From positions 293,198,001 to 293,262,000 of the forward strand of contig OZ024740.1 of the NCBI GenBank assembly GCA_964016885.1: a stretch of DNA of 64,000 nt. Direction: 5' to 3'. Source of the stretch: Eledone cirrhosa (lineage: Eukaryota). The position numbers and the translations under genes are program-made. Position 1 is the stretch's first letter. Each line of letters starts with the position of its first letter. Shown one piece after another: positions 30,885 to 59,289 of this stretch. The notes under the pieces were generated by a model. The model ran no database searches, was not told where the DNA came from, and saw only the letters and a program-made list of their open reading frames with translations.

Positions 30885-31780
30885 ATACCTGATACTCAAA
30901 GACTTAGCAATGTCCAGTAGTGCTAAGTTTAATATTCTGATCGCAGACTTGGTACGAGTGATGAAGAACGTGTCTCGCATGTGCGACCCAACAGAAATGG
31001 AAATACACATCCAACACTTCATCAACCGCATGCAGTTCTCTGGCTACAACCAAAGAGACAGAATCAGAGTATACGAAGAAGCCATGGAGAAGTATAAGAC
31101 CCTCATAGAACTGGATATGAAAGGAATTTGCCCATTATACAGGAGAAAATCATGGAATAGCTTAGATATGACTAGACCTAAGATAGGGAAAGCCACCTCA
31201 TGGTACGACAACCAGAGATACCAGAGTGTCATGTTCGTGGATGCTACCCCTGGAGGGAAATTAGCTAACCAGTGTAGAAAGGCCCTGAGAAAGACCCACT
31301 TAAAGATTAAGGTGGTAGAAAAGCCAGGAACCACCATAAAATCCCTGATCAGCAAAACCTTTCCTTTTTAAGAAAACCCACTGTAATAATAGGAAATGTA
31401 TCATATGTAAGGTAAATCCCCGGATAAACTGTAAAACTAGAAACGTAGTCTATAGCATAAGATGTACAGAGGGTACTTGCAGAAACACGACAACAACATA
31501 GATAGGCGAGACAGCTCGTAGCATAGGTGAAAAGATAGATCAACACTGGGGGGAACTAAAAGGACGAAAAAACGGTTCAGTACTATACGAACATGCCAGA
31601 CAACAACACGACGGTAACATAGACAAAATAGAAATTAGACTAATATCTAAACATAGAAATGACCCAGCAGATAGGCAAATCAGAGAGGCCAGTGAAATAG
31701 TACTTAGAAGGCCAAGGCTAAACAGAAACAATGAATGGAATAACAACATCCAAACAAACAACACTGACCTAAGTGAAGTA

Positions 31781-32894: not shown

Positions 32895-33200
32895 TAAAAG
32901 GAAAAGAAAATGCTGACAAATTGTTCCCAGTGAAAAATAGTTTAATTAGGAATAAGTAAAAATTAGTAATAGTATTGGTTAGTATTCAGTTTTGGTTTTA
33001 AGTTTTACCGGTTGCGCATTTCTAATGCTTTTCAAAAATAATTTTGAGATAGAGCGCCCGTGATGTTTGCTCTAATCTGATTACTTTTGGAAATTCAACC
33101 TGTTTTATGTAAAAAAAAGTGGCTCCAGATGTATGAAAAAATTCTTGTGGTCAAAACAATTTTGATTGGTCGGTAGAGCTCATGTGAATGTTAAAAATTT
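32891..33200 (-). repeat. Family M pLTR-like remnant with a variant hammerhead at 33003-33038
   Basis: Minus strand TTGAAAA-gcat-tagaa-atgc-GCAA-ccgg-TA; matches 55610-55997. Confidence 0.65.
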
Positions 33201-49099: not shown

Positions 49100-49725
49100 A
49101 TAGGAAGATGGAATGGATGGACCAAAGCCATACGGACACCCAAAAACAACGATCAGGTGAGAAAAATGGTCGCACATGTAGTAGAGGCTAGTATTAAAAC
49201 TACTGTAAAGGGCCACATGTTTAAATTTAAGGAGAAAACTCTACACCCACAATGAAGGAGCAGCCATTGGTGTCAGCATAGCTGGCGATGTTGCCAATCT
49301 ATTTATGGTGTGGTGGGAAAGGAGACTCAGAGAACTCTTAGAAGAGAACTCCATAACCCTCGTCATGTACTCTCGTTACGTAGACGATATCAATATAGTA
49401 ATAAGAACACCCCCACAAGAGAGTACCAACAAACCTGAACTAGAAAATAACACAATAGAGAGCATCCAGCAGATAGCTAACGCCATACACCAGAGCATAA
49501 CTGTAACTATTGATTACCCTTTCAAACACCCTAACAATATACTACCAGTATTAGACAGGGAACTCTGGTTAAACACTATAAACGAGAGGGCCCAAATTCT
49601 CCACTCCCACTATGCTAAACCCATGGCCTCCAAATACCTTATATTCAAAAACTCAGCGATTTCCAATAGTGCCAAGTTTAATATTCTGATCACAGACTTG
49701 GTAAGAGTGATGAAGAATGTGTCCA
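49100..49725 (+). pseudogene. Neptune-like PLE RT fragment
   Basis: GAAIGVSIAGDVANLFM, YSRYVDDI, LPVLD and HYAKPMASKY; the 3' end overlaps the start of the 30885 and 54062 copies. Confidence 0.88.
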
Positions 49726-51940
49726 GTGTATTGACAACTTTTAAGGCTCAATAGTGAGAACGTTGAGCAGGCGAAGGTCTTTCCATTTATAGCTGCTACT
49801 AATTTTGTAGTAATGTTTTACTTGCTTATGTTGTTTTCTTCTGTTTCCTGCGTCTGTCAATTATTTTGATGTCGGTTTTACATGATTTATTCCGGAGAGT
49901 CGTTTTATAGAATAAACCCATAAAGTGAAAAGCAGCAGACGATATCTCCACAATGACGTAACCACATGACGTAAATATTTCTTAGTTTAACTATTGAAAT
50001 GAGTGTCAATGGTTGCTTATTCAAATGTTAATGTAGGCTTGTTTACACATTTTAATTTTCTTCCATCCCAGCTTCTCTCTCATTCCGAATGTTGCTAATT
50101 TCTTTTTTCCACAAAATACCATTCAGTGATCAATTGAATTCATTCAACATGTGTAAATGGACACATACTATTAAAGCTTGCAACGCTGTAACCATTCAGC
50201 TACAAATATATTCTGTCAATAAAATATGTTGTGTAATAAATAAAAAGCAGCGATTGTAGAATTCTGTCTTTTTGCTTTTTATGAAAGCATTAATATCCAT
50301 CGCAACTATATTCTATTTTTCGCGTTTTCTTTGCAAAAGATTTAACTAAGAGGAGTAGATAAACAGTTGGGCTTATTGTCAAAGACAGATAAGTACCATA
50401 TGTTCAACTTGTGAATACACAAATATTACAAAACGTTGGTTGCATAAATCAATATTTTTATCAACAGCTTATAAAGACAAGCATCATTGTTATTATAGAC
50501 ATTATTTCTAGACGAGCTTAATTCAGTTTTCGACATTCCACCTATCTTATGTAAATATGGTCAGTATAATTAACTAAAACTAACGAAAAGCTTTATATTC
50601 TTTACCATTGTCAGCTGAATGAAGTACGTGGTATTTATCAGAAGCCAAGGATGTAATACATTCAAGAGGTTAATCTGCTGCAAAATATGGCACTGATTTT
50701 ACTTCAAAATCTTATTTGTTATATTTGTACTATACGTTAATGAAGTGTGGGGACAAAGGCCCCGTCATTTTCACGCTTGTGACTGGGGAGTTTGATGTTA
50801 TTGGTGTTCAGTTTATACATTAAAGTTTGCAAGAAAACGTTGCAAGAAAACGTTTGAAAGGAGCAGGAGGAAATGTTTAGTGTGGGATATATATATATAC
50901 TAGGAGCGACAGAAGGTGTAGAGACTGTAGCCAATACTTTTGATCCCTTGCTAAAATAATGTCTACTAGATATCCACTATGCCTCACCCATGATAATTCC
51001 TTATACAGTACTTTCACAGAGAAACCTCTCCCAATTGCTGCCCAATTTTCATCCAATTACAAGTTATAGATACTTGACTTAACTTCACCGAAAGCTTGCT
51101 TTTCAACTCCTCCAGTTTCACTGCCACGTAGTTTCACCAAGCGCGAAACCACATTCGTTCATGTGAAATCAACAAGACCTCCGGACATCTCATCTTCCAT
51201 TACCCTCAATCAGCACACTCTACAGTTAGCCCCTCTCAAATTCAGTTTTCCTCTCTTTCATACTAGGTTCATGGGGTCGAGCTCTGGGGGAAAGATACTT
51301 CCTCAATGTGCAACACACTATCGTTGAACACGAAACCATATAGTTGCCAGGCAAACGCCCTAACCAGAAAACTATCCATACGCTGATACAAACGATGTTA
51401 TGAAGACCATGACCAGTTTCATATCCCAATCTATAAATATTTCTCTTCAACGCATACGTGCATGCAATCATACACATACACATACATTCTTTCCCAAGTA
51501 TACAATGCGCACAAACATAAAAACATGTTCTTCAGATTTATTTCCGGGATGTTTCATGCAATTGATAGTAAAATAAACGCACATATTTATAACCGATAAA
51601 GACAAAATAAAGAATTATAAGTTAACAGAGTTACTATATCGTTATAGCTATTTCCCTCACAGTCAATAGTAAGCTTCTATTCACTCACAATATTTGTATT
51701 AAAGCCATTATTGATATACGTTAATGACAAACCGAACAATATGATGATTCATTAAACTGATCTTATATTACTATGAGTAGTGAGACATACTTTTGAACAA
51801 ATAGTATGAGTTAGTATTAGTTGTTAATATTCCACAAGAACTGGATATAAGACTATTGTTATTGTAGCTAAAATTGTATAAAGCAGATTAAATACAGACA
51901 TATAATGCAGATTTAATATATATAAAAGAATGTGGGGTAT

Positions 51941-52431: not shown

Positions 52432-52473
<42 letters not shown>

Positions 52474-52606
52474 GTGAGTTTTTTTTTTTACAAAATGAAA
52501 AATAACCGAGGTGTCCTACACGAGTGAAAGTATAAAGAAAAAAAGATGAAATCGAAAATGCAACTGGAGTCTTATTTTTTTTAAAAATATATATATTTAT
52601 TTGGTT

Positions 52607-52644
52607 CCTTTACCGGTTTCGCAGTTCTTCTGCTTTTCAAAAGT
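52607..52644 (-). ncRNA. Minimal hammerhead with U3-A8 core
   Basis: ctt-TTGAAAA-gcag-aagaa-ctgc-GAAA-ccgg-TA-aag. Confidence 0.65.
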
Positions 52645-52723
52645 AGAGTTGAGATGGAGGGTCTGTGTTTTTTCTCACATCTGAGATAAATATATAAACT
52701 TTCTCACATCTGACATAAATATA

Positions 52724-53022
52724 TAAACAGACTAAATAAAGATGGCGTAGAAAATACAATGCAACGGGAGGAAACAATAGCACCACTGACGATGTTGCAG
52801 ATGTGCAACGAAAGAACTTTGATAGACTATATATATGTGTTTGTGTCTATATTGTATCTGTATTATTTTTGACTGTTGGTCAGTCACTGGCAACATTGAG
52901 AACCGAATAAATTTAATTAACCGATATAAAAGACGCAGAAGGGAAAAGCGAAAACCAACCAAACTGTGAGTGTGTTCTGTTATTAATTCTGGCAATATTA
53001 CGCAAATATGACCCTCCTCAAG
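52724..53022 (+). repeat. Partial pLTR of the Neptune-like PLE
   Basis: Almost identical to 55192-55495. Confidence 0.9.
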
Positions 53023-54048: not shown

Positions 54049-54061
54049 TATATATATAGGA

Positions 54062-55495
54062 AAACTATGCTAAACTCATGGCCTCCAAATACCTGAGACT
54101 CAAAAACTCAGCAATGTCCAGTAGTTCTAAGTTTAATATTCTGATCGCAGACTTGGTACGAGTGATGAAGAACGTGTCTCGCATGTGCGACCCAACAGAA
54201 ATGGAAATACACATCCAACACTTCATCAACTGCATGCAGTTCTCTGGCTACAACCAAAGAGACAGAATCAGAGTATACGAAGGAGCCACGGAGAAGTATA
54301 AGACCCTCATAGAACTGGACATGAAAGGAATTTGTCCATTATACAAGAGCCAATCTTGGAATAGCTTAGATAGGACTAGACATAGGATAGGGAAAGCCAC
54401 CTCATGGTACGGCAACCAGAGATACCAGAGTGTCATGTTTGTGGACGCTACCCCTGGAGGGAAATTAGTTAACCAGTGTAGAAAGGCCCTGAGAAAGACC
54501 CACTTAAAGATTAAGGTGGTAGAAAAGCCAGGAACCACCATAAAATCCCCGATCAGCAAAACCTTTCCTTTTAAGAAAACCCACTGTACTAATAGGAAAT
54601 GTATCATATGTAAGGTAAATCCCCGGATAAACTGTAAAACTAGAAACGTACTCTATAGCATAAGATGTACAGAGGGTACTTGCAGAAACATGACAACAAC
54701 AGGCGAGACAGCTCGTAGCATAGGTGAAAAGATAGACCAACACTGGGGGGAACTAAAAGGACGAAAAAACGGTTCAGTACTATACGAACATGCCAGACAA
54801 CAACACGACGGTAACATAGACAACATAGAAATTAGACTAATATCTAAGCATAGAAATGACCCAGCAGATAGGAAAATAAGAGAGGCCAATGAAATAGTAC
54901 TTAGAAGGCCAAGGCTAAACAGAAAAAATGAATGGAATAACAACACCCAAACAAACAACACTGACCTAAGAGAAGTATAAATAAATAAATAAATAAATAG
55001 ATAAATAAATAAATACATACACAAGCACAATAACAACAAACACAAGTAAACACACACTAGTAAAGATAGAATACATTAACCAATACACAGTTACCCAATC
55101 ACGAACACACATCAAACAAAACACTATACACACACGCAAACGCATGCGCAAAGAAGATAAAAAACAACTACAAAAATAAACAAATAAATAAATATATAAA
55201 CAGACTAAATAAAGATGGCGTAGAAAATACAATGCAACGGGAGGAAACAATAGCACCACTGACGATGTTGCAGATGTGCAACGAAAGAACTTTGATAGAC
55301 TATATATATGTGTTTGTGTCTATATTGTATCTGTATTATTTTTGACTGTTGGTCAGTCACTGGCAACATTGAGAACCGAATAAATTTAATTAACCGATAT
55401 AAAAGACGCAGAAGGGAAAAGCGAAAACCAACCAAACTGTGAGTGTGTTCTGTTATTAATTCTGGCAATATTACACAAATATGACCCTCCTCAAG
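54062..55495 (+). mobile_element. 5'-truncated Neptune-like PLE; open 300-aa C-terminal frame (54078-54980) plus pLTR
   Basis: CTNRKCIIC..NCKTRNVLYSIRC..GETARS..QH; the YI of YIG is deleted in frame. HHR-like core at 55259-55286. Confidence 0.9.
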
Positions 55496-56420: not shown

Positions 56421-56436
<16 letters not shown>

Positions 56437-56665
56437 TTAGAAACACACAGATACATGCGGACACACACATATATACATGAATGCATCCGCACCCAACTGT
56501 GAGTTAAGGGTGCCAACTTCACCGATGTTGCTCAATGAATGACTGGGACAGACCAATCCAGTTGAACTAGACTGAACCAGTATCAGAGTTAAAAATACAT
56601 TATGAAGAGAGAAGAAACATTTAGATATAATTAGTAATAAAATGTATCATACCTAAACTGCTTCT
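56421..56665 (-). repeat. Family O partial copy
   Basis: Matches 58268-58505. Confidence 0.85.
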
Positions 56666-56734
56666 ATATTTATATATATATATATATATATAAATATATA
56701 TATACACATATATATATACATATATATATACACA

Positions 56735-57186
56735 TGTCAACTCTGGATGTCGGTGAGCATGTCCAGCCAACCTCAGTCTCCTCTGTGTCACTTTTGAGCT
56801 GACTTTTGGGATGCTCCCATACAGCTCTGAGTTTTTCATCCTCAGTGTATACTGATTAATGTTCAGAGCCATCCTCAGCATTCTCGTGTAGCAGCCATCC
56901 ACCATCTGAGTGAGTTTCTTGGTCAGTGTCCAAGTCTCAGACCCATACAGCAGCACAGACTCCACTACAGCAATGAAGAGGCAATGACATTGCACTCAGT
57001 GGTCCTTTGGGAGCCCCTACATGGACACACTAGAAGAGGAAGACCAAGGTTAACATATGTTGATGCCCTAAAGACAGACACTGGTCTGTTGGAGATGCAG
57101 GATATGGCAGCGATAATGAGAGACAGAGACCGCTGGAGAGAACTTGTCCATGGATCTCGGGAATTTTACCCGCCTTAGATAGATAG

Positions 57187-57190: not shown

Positions 57191-57231
<41 letters not shown>

Positions 57232-57414: not shown

Positions 57415-57420
<6 letters not shown>

Positions 57421-57792: not shown

Positions 57793-57835
<43 letters not shown>

Positions 57836-57842
<7 letters not shown>

Positions 57843-58667
57843 TATGAAGAGAGAAGAAACATTTAGATATAATTAGTAATAAAATGTATCATACCTAAAC
57901 TGCTCCTAAATTCCTCGACTACGTAGTTTCGTGGCATAAACAAAAACAATATATCATGAAGATATAGAGTCCTTGCGAGGTCTGCCGACTTATCAAGAGG
58001 ATACCTCATTTTACTAGTCTCAAGAACGCGTCTACACGACGTGAGAAAGAATCCCAAAAGGCGGAGGGGGAGATAGTCACGCGATATAACGGTCGAGAAA
58101 CAGAGCTAAGCCTCTTATAACCCCGAAGAAAATACCACGGAGGGGGAGGGGGTATTTATATCGAGGCCGTAGAAGAGGTGGTGAAGAAGGCAAGAAGTAT
58201 GAGTAATGGAAGCCTTCCAGCTGTCCCCACACCTCAAAGATTGCTCGACCAGAGGGAGTTATTAACAATATAATTAGAAACACACAGATACATGCGGACA
58301 CACACACATATATACATGAATGCATCCGCACCCAACTGTGAGTTAAGGGTGCCAACTTCACCGATGTTGCTCAATGAATGACTGGGACAGACCAATTCAG
58401 TTGAACTAGACTGAACCAGTATCAGAGTTAAAAATACATTATGAAGAGAGAAGAAACATTTAGATATAATTAGTAATAAAATGTATCATACCTAAACTGC
58501 TCCTAAATTCCTCGACTACGTAGTTTCGTGGCATAAACAAAAACAATATATCATGAAGATATAGAGTCCTTGCGAGGTCTGCCGACTTATCAAGAGGATA
58601 CCTCATTTTACTAGTCTCAAGAACGCATCTACACGACGTGAGAAAGAATCCCAAAAGGCGGAGGGGG

Positions 58668-58669
<2 letters not shown>
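57836..58669 (-). mobile_element. Family O retrozyme-like element: two ~234-bp direct repeats, each with a hammerhead, 597 bp apart
   Basis: HHRs at 57912-58001 and 58509-58598: tcctc-TTGATAA-gtcggca..tgccac-GAAA-ctacgtag-TC-gagga. Confidence 0.82.
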
Positions 58670-58721
<52 letters not shown>

Positions 58722-59289
58722 TATATTGCTGAGTGAATATCATTTACTTCTTAAACAGTTACTTTATTCTCGTGCCATCTACATCTCTTAAATAAATCCA
58801 CCTGCCTCTTTTCTTTCAAACACTCATGCAAAATAAAAAGAAATCACCACCATTTCAGATTTCACAAAGAGAAAATCCTCAACAATACATTTTCTCTGGA
58901 CCCCAGTAACTTATTACAACATCTAAATATTAACCCGTCCAGTTGGATAGACACTTACATTGTAGTATTTCTAAAGTTATCGTCATTTTCACATTTACAT
59001 TTTCATAAATATGGCATTTTGCTCTATTGTTACTCAGGAAAATAAATCATGTTTATACCAATTTCTATATCTTTCTTTGCAGCTGTTATTATATCTCATG
59101 TAATTGTAAGTATCAGTCGTTTTTTTTTTTTTCTTTCTTGTTATGTTAAAAGATATATTGTAAAAGGCTTTCAGTACCTCTTTAAATGTGAGAAGCTGAC
59201 TTCAGAAAGACATTATGATTGGTTGTTTTCGAAACCTTTCATTCTTTGATTTAAACAATTAAAAATATTTGTTTCAATATCTAAATACC

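Follow-up and report, generated by a model that had tools for sequence, protein, structure and literature searches.

The window, a 64,000-nt stretch of contig OZ024740.1 of Eledone cirrhosa, contains on its minus strand an 833-nt insertion (57837–58669) that consists of 1.4 turns of a 597-nt tandem unit, is 5'-truncated at unit position 442 and ends on its 3' side at a site designated A. Exact comparison showed 57837–58072 and 58434–58669 to be 236-bp repeats with a period of 597 and one mismatch (58030/58627). An earlier reading made from the letters alone (the sequence-only reading) had described an A-B-C-A layout; the two repeats and their single mismatch were confirmed, but the repeats are not ~234 bp long, and they belong to consecutive tandem turns instead of being LTR-type repeats around a body. 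The third partial copy it had listed is present at about 56430–56666 (minus strand, from site B at +247 back to +5/+9, 97.5% identical to the unit). With no ribozyme core and with alleles of a different subfamily, this piece is a separate short insertion of the same family and not part of the 833-nt one. It is extremely improbable that the duplication is an assembly error, as the two repeats differ at one base and dozens of further insertions, whose flanks are unrelated, contain the same read-through junction.

Each repeat holds one type I hammerhead motif on the minus strand, in agreement with the sequence-only reading. The 5' motif (58509–58598, predicted cut 58514|58513) comprises stem I (58598–58594/58513–58509), the core UUGAUAA (58593–58587), the helix II domain (58586–58528), and GAAA with a palindromic helix III (58527–58514); the 3' motif (57912–58001, predicted cut 57917|57916) is identical to it. 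The predicted cut-to-cut monomer (57917–58513, minus strand) is 597 nt long, with a GC content of 42% and no conserved ORF. Site A (57837–57851, unit +77 to +80, CUCUUCAUAAUG|UA), a fixed 3' end of insertions and putative start of reverse transcription, shares TA microhomology with the (TA)n target and recurs internally at 58435–58448. Site B (58263–58283, unit +244 to +252, GUGUUUCUAAWUAUAU), the second fixed 3' end, is internal in the window copy. Three hairpins, whose pairing is kept between subfamilies, are predicted 3' of the cut (58277–58504; +10..+62, +87..+145 and +170..+237). Both flanks are (TA)n, as had been noted: 57796–57839 on the 3' side of the element and 58678–58726 on its 5' side, where TATGTGTG, starting at 58670, sits between the unit and the right-hand array.

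The hammerhead motif and the monomer

The motif, identified in each repeat by inspection, has the order UCCUC-UUGAUAA-(59-nt helix II domain)-GAAA-CUACGUAG-UC|GAGGA. Stem I (UCCUC/GAGGA) has 5 bp, the core contains U3-A8 instead of C3-G8, the 59-nt helix II domain is built from GU, a bulged C and GGCA on one side and UGCC AC on the other, helix III is the 10-nt palindrome ACUACGUAGU, and the cleavage site is GUC. With such a stem I, core and helix II domain, the motif departs from canonical type I hammerheads, including their loop 1–loop 2 contacts, and no hammerhead was matched by Rfam, at any threshold used, in the repeats, the whole window or the 831-nt stretch. The identification is based on inspection, our own descriptor and conservation among copies. 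Hammerheads with U3-A8 cores can be active. This variant occurs in the Penelope-like element (PLE) ribozymes described for Schistosoma (PMC4209133), and the ribozyme of the unit is, by its sequence, an atypical one of the PLE kind. For predicted Xenopus retrozymes, cleavage in vitro was reported for just 1 of 9 (bioRxiv 10.64898/2026.07.22.740005). As Rfam misses this ribozyme, elements of such a kind may be undercounted. A pattern search for short-helix-II versions of the unit's ribozyme yielded deletion copies only. The helix II extension has 20–22-nt deletions in L031 and L032; in the latter the deletion is present in both units, so the shortened form has itself been copied. A canonical CUGAUGA-type hammerhead-like motif at L097:255–290 lies in the flank and comes from another repeat family.

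Three older monomers were compared with that of the window: identity extends to 42 of the 44 columns of the ribozyme, and to 437 of 597 over the whole unit. This comparison partly selected for the 3' half of the ribozyme, but not for its 5' half (18/19 identical). The ribozyme is thus the best conserved part of the unit across 21% divergence. A structure drawn from the window sequence, comprising the ribozyme and three hairpins (95 pairs), was paired in 96% of the cells of an alignment of 25 copies (A1), which left out three junction chimaeras and six other picks. The ribozyme stems are nearly invariant among these copies, the helix II extension and the hairpins vary chiefly by G-U/A-U swaps, and two pairs are changed on both sides between subfamilies, representing few independent events.

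The longest ATG ORFs on the circularised unit encode 82 and 48 aa, and the unit length varies from 585 to 599 nt without retention of frame; protein-coding capacity is lacking, as the sequence-only reading had held. The monomer is predicted to fold with -188 kcal/mol (z = -7.0), and 0 of 100 shuffled sequences were equally stable. In all 14 circular monomers, the active hammerhead lies 6–11 kcal/mol above the predicted minimum-energy fold, and predictions for nascent fragments do not favour it either. Through the helix III palindrome, an intermolecular duplex of a predicted -14.3 kcal/mol could be added. Pairing of the cut region with +67..+79, right at site A, is predicted at p > 0.9 for 7 of 10 young circles; the helix is weak in the other 3 young and in 4 older circles. 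No such junction-spanning helix was predicted for the PLE family C described below (z = +1.1).

The TATA-like box that had been located on the minus strand near 58155 is TATAAATA (58160–58153); with the C-rich box that follows (together 58139–58160) it makes a candidate internal promoter. CCCCTCCGCC boxes resembling the C-rich box are found on the same strand at 58069–58060 and 58666–58657. The TATA-like box varies among copies (TATGAATA, TATAAGTA) and lies inside the monomer, at unit +354; for two ribozymes to stand downstream of it, a copy must comprise ~1.55 units. In the window copy it precedes only one ribozyme and no TATA stands upstream of the first, so this copy may not release a monomer by itself and, with its 1.4 units, would need read-through transcription.

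Family size, insertion ends and arms

A 21-mer across the cut has 7,545 exact matches in the genome (reversed control, 0), and the family was extrapolated to ~3,850 insertions from the first 100 of these matches, which represent 51 insertions. A DNA search of the same genome gave at least 91 matches (40 of 1,255 candidates scored) on many contigs, nearly all 96–100% identical. Insertions span 0.2 to 7.6 units, with up to 6.8 units in a single arm, and the sampled copies are circularly permuted and multimeric, as a genome check proposed by the sequence-only reading had anticipated. Two or more consecutive units occur, each with a complete type I motif, and there are no LTRs: 5' ends are scattered, repeat length depends on truncation, and GC content is below 50%. 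A second, older subfamily, 79% identical, has a closed unit of ~590 nt (585–595 nt) in (TA)n with the same ribozyme and ends. The main family is young, its copies being 95–100% identical to the window unit. A recent insertion had been suggested earlier from the near identity of the two repeats, but that identity reflects a common template more than age, and the older subfamily exists as well.

Measured from the cut, insertion 3' ends lie at +77 to +80 (site A) or at +244 to +252 (site B), both of them fixed sites, in each case with UA merging with (TA)n; the distance between the sites, ~167–171 nt, corresponds to the 'tail' of PLEs. We classed a positional sample, the 51 insertions that hold the first 100 matches of contig C1, by eye from the search output. 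Of these, 23 insertions were two-armed with one arm ending at A and the other at B, 2 had one canonical and one other end, 12 ended at A only, 13 at B only, and 1 was unclassed. Neither A+A nor B+B was found (p = 2.4e-7 for 23/23; the A+B count is 22 if the near-duplicates L107 and L110 are counted once). In an overlapping set of 53 insertions, from which L110 was dropped, 30 were A+B, 1 A+A, 1 A with another end, and 21 one-armed; in the older subfamily A+B was seen in 17 of 29 loci. Partial tandems, 5' truncation, an inverted 5' arm and a tail at one end only (23 of the 25 two-armed insertions of the positional sample) are as expected of PLE-mobilised elements. The insertions lie in (TA)n, in which a TSD cannot be delimited.

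Spread at the DNA level in a minisatellite- or MITE-like manner (unequal exchange, rolling-circle DNA, or cut and paste), or by a LINE reverse transcriptase, the hammerhead being incidental, would account for the tandem arrays, and later duplication of DNA is indeed visible at L066 and L107/L110. However, the fixed 3' ends, scattered 5' truncation, strict A+B arms and lack of a poly(A) tail are marks of PLE-type retrotransposition, and the copies are dispersed over many contigs, making this explanation highly unlikely. At L066 (G000:C1:160090832–160094901), a 6.8-unit array, variants recur with period 3 (units 2/5, 3/6 and 4/7), a pattern that would reflect either a three-unit duplication or a trimeric template. 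Fold-back as the sole origin of the inverted arms was rejected, since the two arms have different end sites and the longer one may be either of them; a few head-to-head junctions (L073, L219 and L229) are exact palindromes.

The arms and turns of an insertion also share their sequence. We compared 87 young insertions, 48 of them two-armed, excluding the GT repeat at +198..+218 and dropping L110 and two loci of the older subfamily (L205 and L226). Among the 48, mismatches between arms affect 10 of 1,143 subfamily sites, versus 18% between insertions. Of the private alleles, 16 were common to both arms (6 insertions), three of these occurring in all 7–8 overlapping units of one 7.6-unit insertion, and 53 were not; across overlapping units, 24 were present in all, 8 in some and 104 in one. 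This sharing suggests that both arms and all turns were copied from one source sequence, for which two RNAs of one source locus, or later homogenisation, could also be responsible. The 8 alleles found in only some units call for later duplication or conversion, or for a multimeric template.

The 5' ends of 131 arms (the same three loci dropped) are scattered around the unit, the longest arm being 4,069 nt. Fourteen of them fall in +1..+30 (post hoc p = 0.008), against 4 of 69 in the positional set. Counted by hand genome-wide, (TA)n junctions at 5' ends just 3' of the cut were found at 56 distinct loci, versus 27 and 25 in control windows. This is no more than suggestive of run-off at a cleaved end, as TA microhomology at +9/+10 accounts for many of the near-cut ends and those at +1..+3 number 16. 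The cut is passed by most cDNAs, whose template would therefore have been ligated or uncut.

The second of these options can be framed as a unit that is likewise non-autonomous and PLE-mobilised but is copied from an uncleaved linear multimer, no circle being needed, with a ribozyme that is weak, cuts solely to set certain 5' ends, or has been retained for the protein-binding fold it forms. Such a template agrees with the active fold not being the predicted ground state, with the partially shared alleles and the period-3 pattern, with the twofold excess of near-cut ends, which fits some linear cleaved templates, and with unprocessed RNA as the main substrate in the in vitro work of PMC11167929. 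Yet 5' truncation would shorten the arrays in each generation, whereas insertions of 4–7.6 units exist and have uniform private alleles in both arms. The ribozyme is, moreover, the part of the unit that has been conserved best, and the 56 near-cut loci make up less than 1% of the 7,545 ribozyme copies. We regard a linear template as rather unlikely.

Reads coded as 17 organisms contain the unit, but horizontal spread or a free replicon was rejected as the cause: unit depth is ~2–13 in X4, X10 and X17 and that of the neighbouring PLE is similarly low (4 runs checked), which points to traces of genomic DNA. No RNA run was among those listed for the unit, a result with no bearing on its expression. 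A 620-nt contig of X4 that closes a 590-nt cycle was rejected as evidence of a circle, as tandem DNA yields the same. No exact match to a 20-mer was found in viral contigs. In the literature searched, whose supplementary lists may hold one, we found neither a described octopus retrozyme nor A+B pairing in a retrozyme.

Penelope-like elements and known retrozymes

The flanks and the genome, in which PLEs abound, were searched for a PLE to which the unit might belong. Among 87 young and 29 older sampled loci, no continuity of the unit with an RT and GIY-YIG ORF was found, and (TA)n stands between the unit and each PLE match in the fetched flanks. Comparison with family A and with the families sampled by GIY-YIG (30 + 20 of 150 listed matches; 10,596 candidates) gave no homology, only short low-complexity matches.

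Several PLE families of the genome combine a CX2-5CxxC linker and, at the C terminus, a GIY-YIG domain, given in PMC8557442 as a mark of Neptune/Nematis, with U3-A8 hammerheads containing the palindrome ACCGGU. Motifs of this kind number at least 21,640 genome-wide, in several PLE families (control, 14), and U3-A8 looks like the dominant core in the Neptune-type elements of this genome. Family C, one of these, is young (98–99% identity between 6 of 8 compared copies). Its ends lie at +75–78 and +141–143 from its own cut, 7 of 11 inverted pairs are A+B (the other 4 unclassed), and its B end reads TTTCTAATATA, resembling TTTCTAAATATA of the unit with the common motif TTTCTAA. Family C is the best partner candidate among the sampled families; since true homology to any of these is lacking, the partner stays a candidate only. 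Family A (35,365 candidates in the genome) is characterised by a 4,133-bp unit, (TA)n targets and numerous intact ORFs of 1,217 aa, in which a long stretch is rich in Asn. Its ends are asymmetric (+26 and +69/+84 of the ORF), the asymmetry being present in 6 of 6 inverted pairs. As a partner by homology it was rejected: it has the target and end asymmetry in common with the unit, but no sequence. Its protein had no Pfam match. For the protein of the neighbouring PLE, the best named homologue is from Octopus vulgaris (68%). The GIY-YIG search also gave one PLE family without the Zn-finger linker, which is not homologous to the unit.

The sequence-only reading had offered, as the alternative to a retrozyme, a tandem pLTR from a truncated PLE, and this is half right, PLE-type features being found in the class of the ribozyme and in the ends of the insertions. 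It had allowed that all copies might be 3' ends of an ORF-bearing PLE, but none of those sampled enters a PLE ORF. In its wider form, the unit would be the pLTR of an unseen autonomous PLE and the copies its truncated 3' ends and partial tandems; the TATA-like box and the target are also of PLE type, and PLE families have been sampled in part. However, among the 87 young insertions and 29 older loci sampled, what follows in every copy longer than one unit is another unit and never an ORF, (TA)n separates the unit from PLE matches in the flanks, both subfamilies, 21% apart, consist of closed units of ~590 nt, and the ribozyme has no short-helix-II relative except deletion copies. We therefore consider a pLTR very unlikely. 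The retrozyme reading proper held up, in that units with a hammerhead but no ORF are found in tandem, in permuted and multimeric copies, and with no exit into a PLE ORF in those sampled.

By its sequence the unit is a non-LTR retrozyme under our working definition, and neither an LTR retrozyme nor, in the copies sampled, an autonomous PLE. Like the non-LTR (metazoan) retrozymes described by Cervera & de la Pena 2020 (PMC7229834) and Li, Clavereau & Pollet 2026, it has tandem ORF-less units with one type I hammerhead each, a GC content below 50%, a palindromic helix III, a self-paired monomer and co-occurrence with PLEs, and its 597 nt lie within the 51–972 bp given for retrozymes in bioRxiv 10.64898/2026.07.22.740005. 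It is larger than the 170–400-nt circles demonstrated for such retrozymes by northern blot. Compared with the non-LTR retrozymes of these accounts, it also differs in i) its non-canonical ribozyme (5-bp stem I, U3-A8, 59-nt helix II domain), ii) its mostly dispersed (TA)n insertions of 0.2–8 units with inverted arms and two fixed 3' ends, and iii) the lack of pLTR homology to a sampled PLE. Tertiary-contact nucleotides are also reported as lacking in mussel retrozymes (PMC7229834).

With the pLTR hammerheads and tails of EN+ PLEs (PMC4209133, PMC8557442, PMC3846280, PMC11167929) and the Neptune-type families of this genome, the unit shares U3-A8, a short stem I, a bulge near the base of helix II and a palindromic helix III, as well as the (TA)n target, head-to-head inverted arms and one-sided extension; it differs from them in having no ORF and a closed 590-nt unit. 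The first start lies ~80 nt 3' of the cut in the unit, at +75–78 in family C and at 85–92 in Anolis Poseidon (published coordinates), whereas the tail is ~167–171 nt in the unit, ~65 nt in family C and 30–40 bp in the PLE literature consulted. The Chlamys MRC1-type elements (PMC8557442) are likewise non-autonomous PLE partners with multicopy head-to-tail insertions, but they have 3' sequence in common with an autonomous family and belong to a clade without canonical hammerheads, according to that account. Plant LTR retrozymes resemble the unit in size class (600–1000 nt) and in a ribozyme predicted to be masked in the circle, and differ in their type III ribozyme, true LTRs, PBS/PPT, 4-bp TSD and Gypsy partner (PMC7229834); the unit has a type I ribozyme in tandem.

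A proposed route of mobilisation

The footprints seen in the genome are a tandem ORF-less unit with a conserved ribozyme motif, two fixed 3' ends in strict asymmetry, one haplotype per insertion, and read-through of the cut. These data suggest that the unit is very probably a non-autonomous hammerhead element mobilised by a PLE, and it is likely that the RT/GIY-YIG protein of a Neptune-type PLE acts in trans. That it is, in full, an ORF-less non-LTR retrozyme copied by a PLE into (TA)n from a predicted circular RNA appears probable to us. For the unit itself, we infer transcription, cleavage, ligation and priming by a PLE dimer as follows. Multi-unit copies would be transcribed, perhaps from the internal TATA/GC-box region, and the U3-A8 hammerheads are predicted to cut at GUC, probably as dimers through the helix III palindrome or with the help of protein. 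As in known retrozymes, the monomer would then be ligated to a circle of ~590–597 nt, where predictions put the active fold at a disadvantage of 6–11 kcal/mol. The insertions bear the footprint of cDNA starts at two fixed internal sites, +78 and +247, where UA matches the (TA)n target. Both target strands would be nicked by a dimeric protein, which would use A as the priming site of one arm and B as that of the other, with the template sequence common to both; the cDNA would cross the cut site, often for several turns. The arms, 5'-truncated at scattered positions, are joined either to (TA)n or to each other head to head; the window insertion is of the one-armed kind, its arm being joined to (TA)n.

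Published work offers parallels to several of these steps. A PLE protein described in PMC11167929 introduces nicks into both strands, extends each of them and uses two internal start sites, and cleavage was dispensable for insertion of the one PLE studied there in vitro. Inverted PLE insertions are described with a tail at one end (PMC8557442, PMC3846280), and animal retrozymes produce circles (PMC7229834). Shared ribozymes, co-occurrence and homology of pLTRs have led to the proposal that PLEs mobilise animal retrozymes (PMC7229834; bioRxiv 10.64898/2026.07.22.740005), to which the present family adds evidence from insertion scars in thousands of young copies. The strict A+B pairing and the single haplotype of both arms bear on the origin of the tandem and inverted structures and the tails of PLEs, named as unsettled in PMC8557442, and the 597-nt unit provides a small RNA substrate for testing PLE insertion.

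A more specific joint reading, which we put forward as a tentative model of doubtful standing, is that two fixed positions on a single circular RNA would be held by one protein dimer, whose subunits would each prime from one nicked (TA)n strand and both roll through the ligation junction. On this model the family would be a genome-wide fossil record of PLE insertion, and the PLE tail and inverted pLTRs would be direct products of asymmetric twin priming. The junction-spanning helix would form site A and, besides silencing the ribozyme, expose the start point for the RT, restricting copying to RNA that is ligated or uncut.

The window contains other repeats. A 5'-truncated family A PLE lies at 54060–55494 (plus strand), with a 306-aa thumb/Zn-finger/GIY-YIG frame; its pLTR (55188–55487) ends in (TA)n and has a 100% identical 300-nt copy at 52715–53014, and no clear stem I accompanies the family's hammerhead-like motif (CUGACGA). 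Family A is also represented by two further fragments, at 30886–31720 and 49100–49733, and family C by a terminal piece at 52466–52683 (minus strand), with a U3-A8 hammerhead at 52640. A 190-nt inverted pair (55606–55795/55813–56002) with a U3-A8 hammerhead-like motif in each arm, having GCAA in place of GAAA, is likely, from its sequence, the two-armed end of another PLE family; a motif of this GCAA type is also present at 33035 (minus strand). Near-perfect inverted pairs are found at 57415–57556/57590–57731 and at 57230–57362/58720–58852, the latter enclosing the retrozyme with (TA)n on both inner sides. Finally, a fragment at 56730–57180, between TA/TAGA arrays, has a minus-strand translation that we take to resemble the 3' part of an RTE-type LINE.
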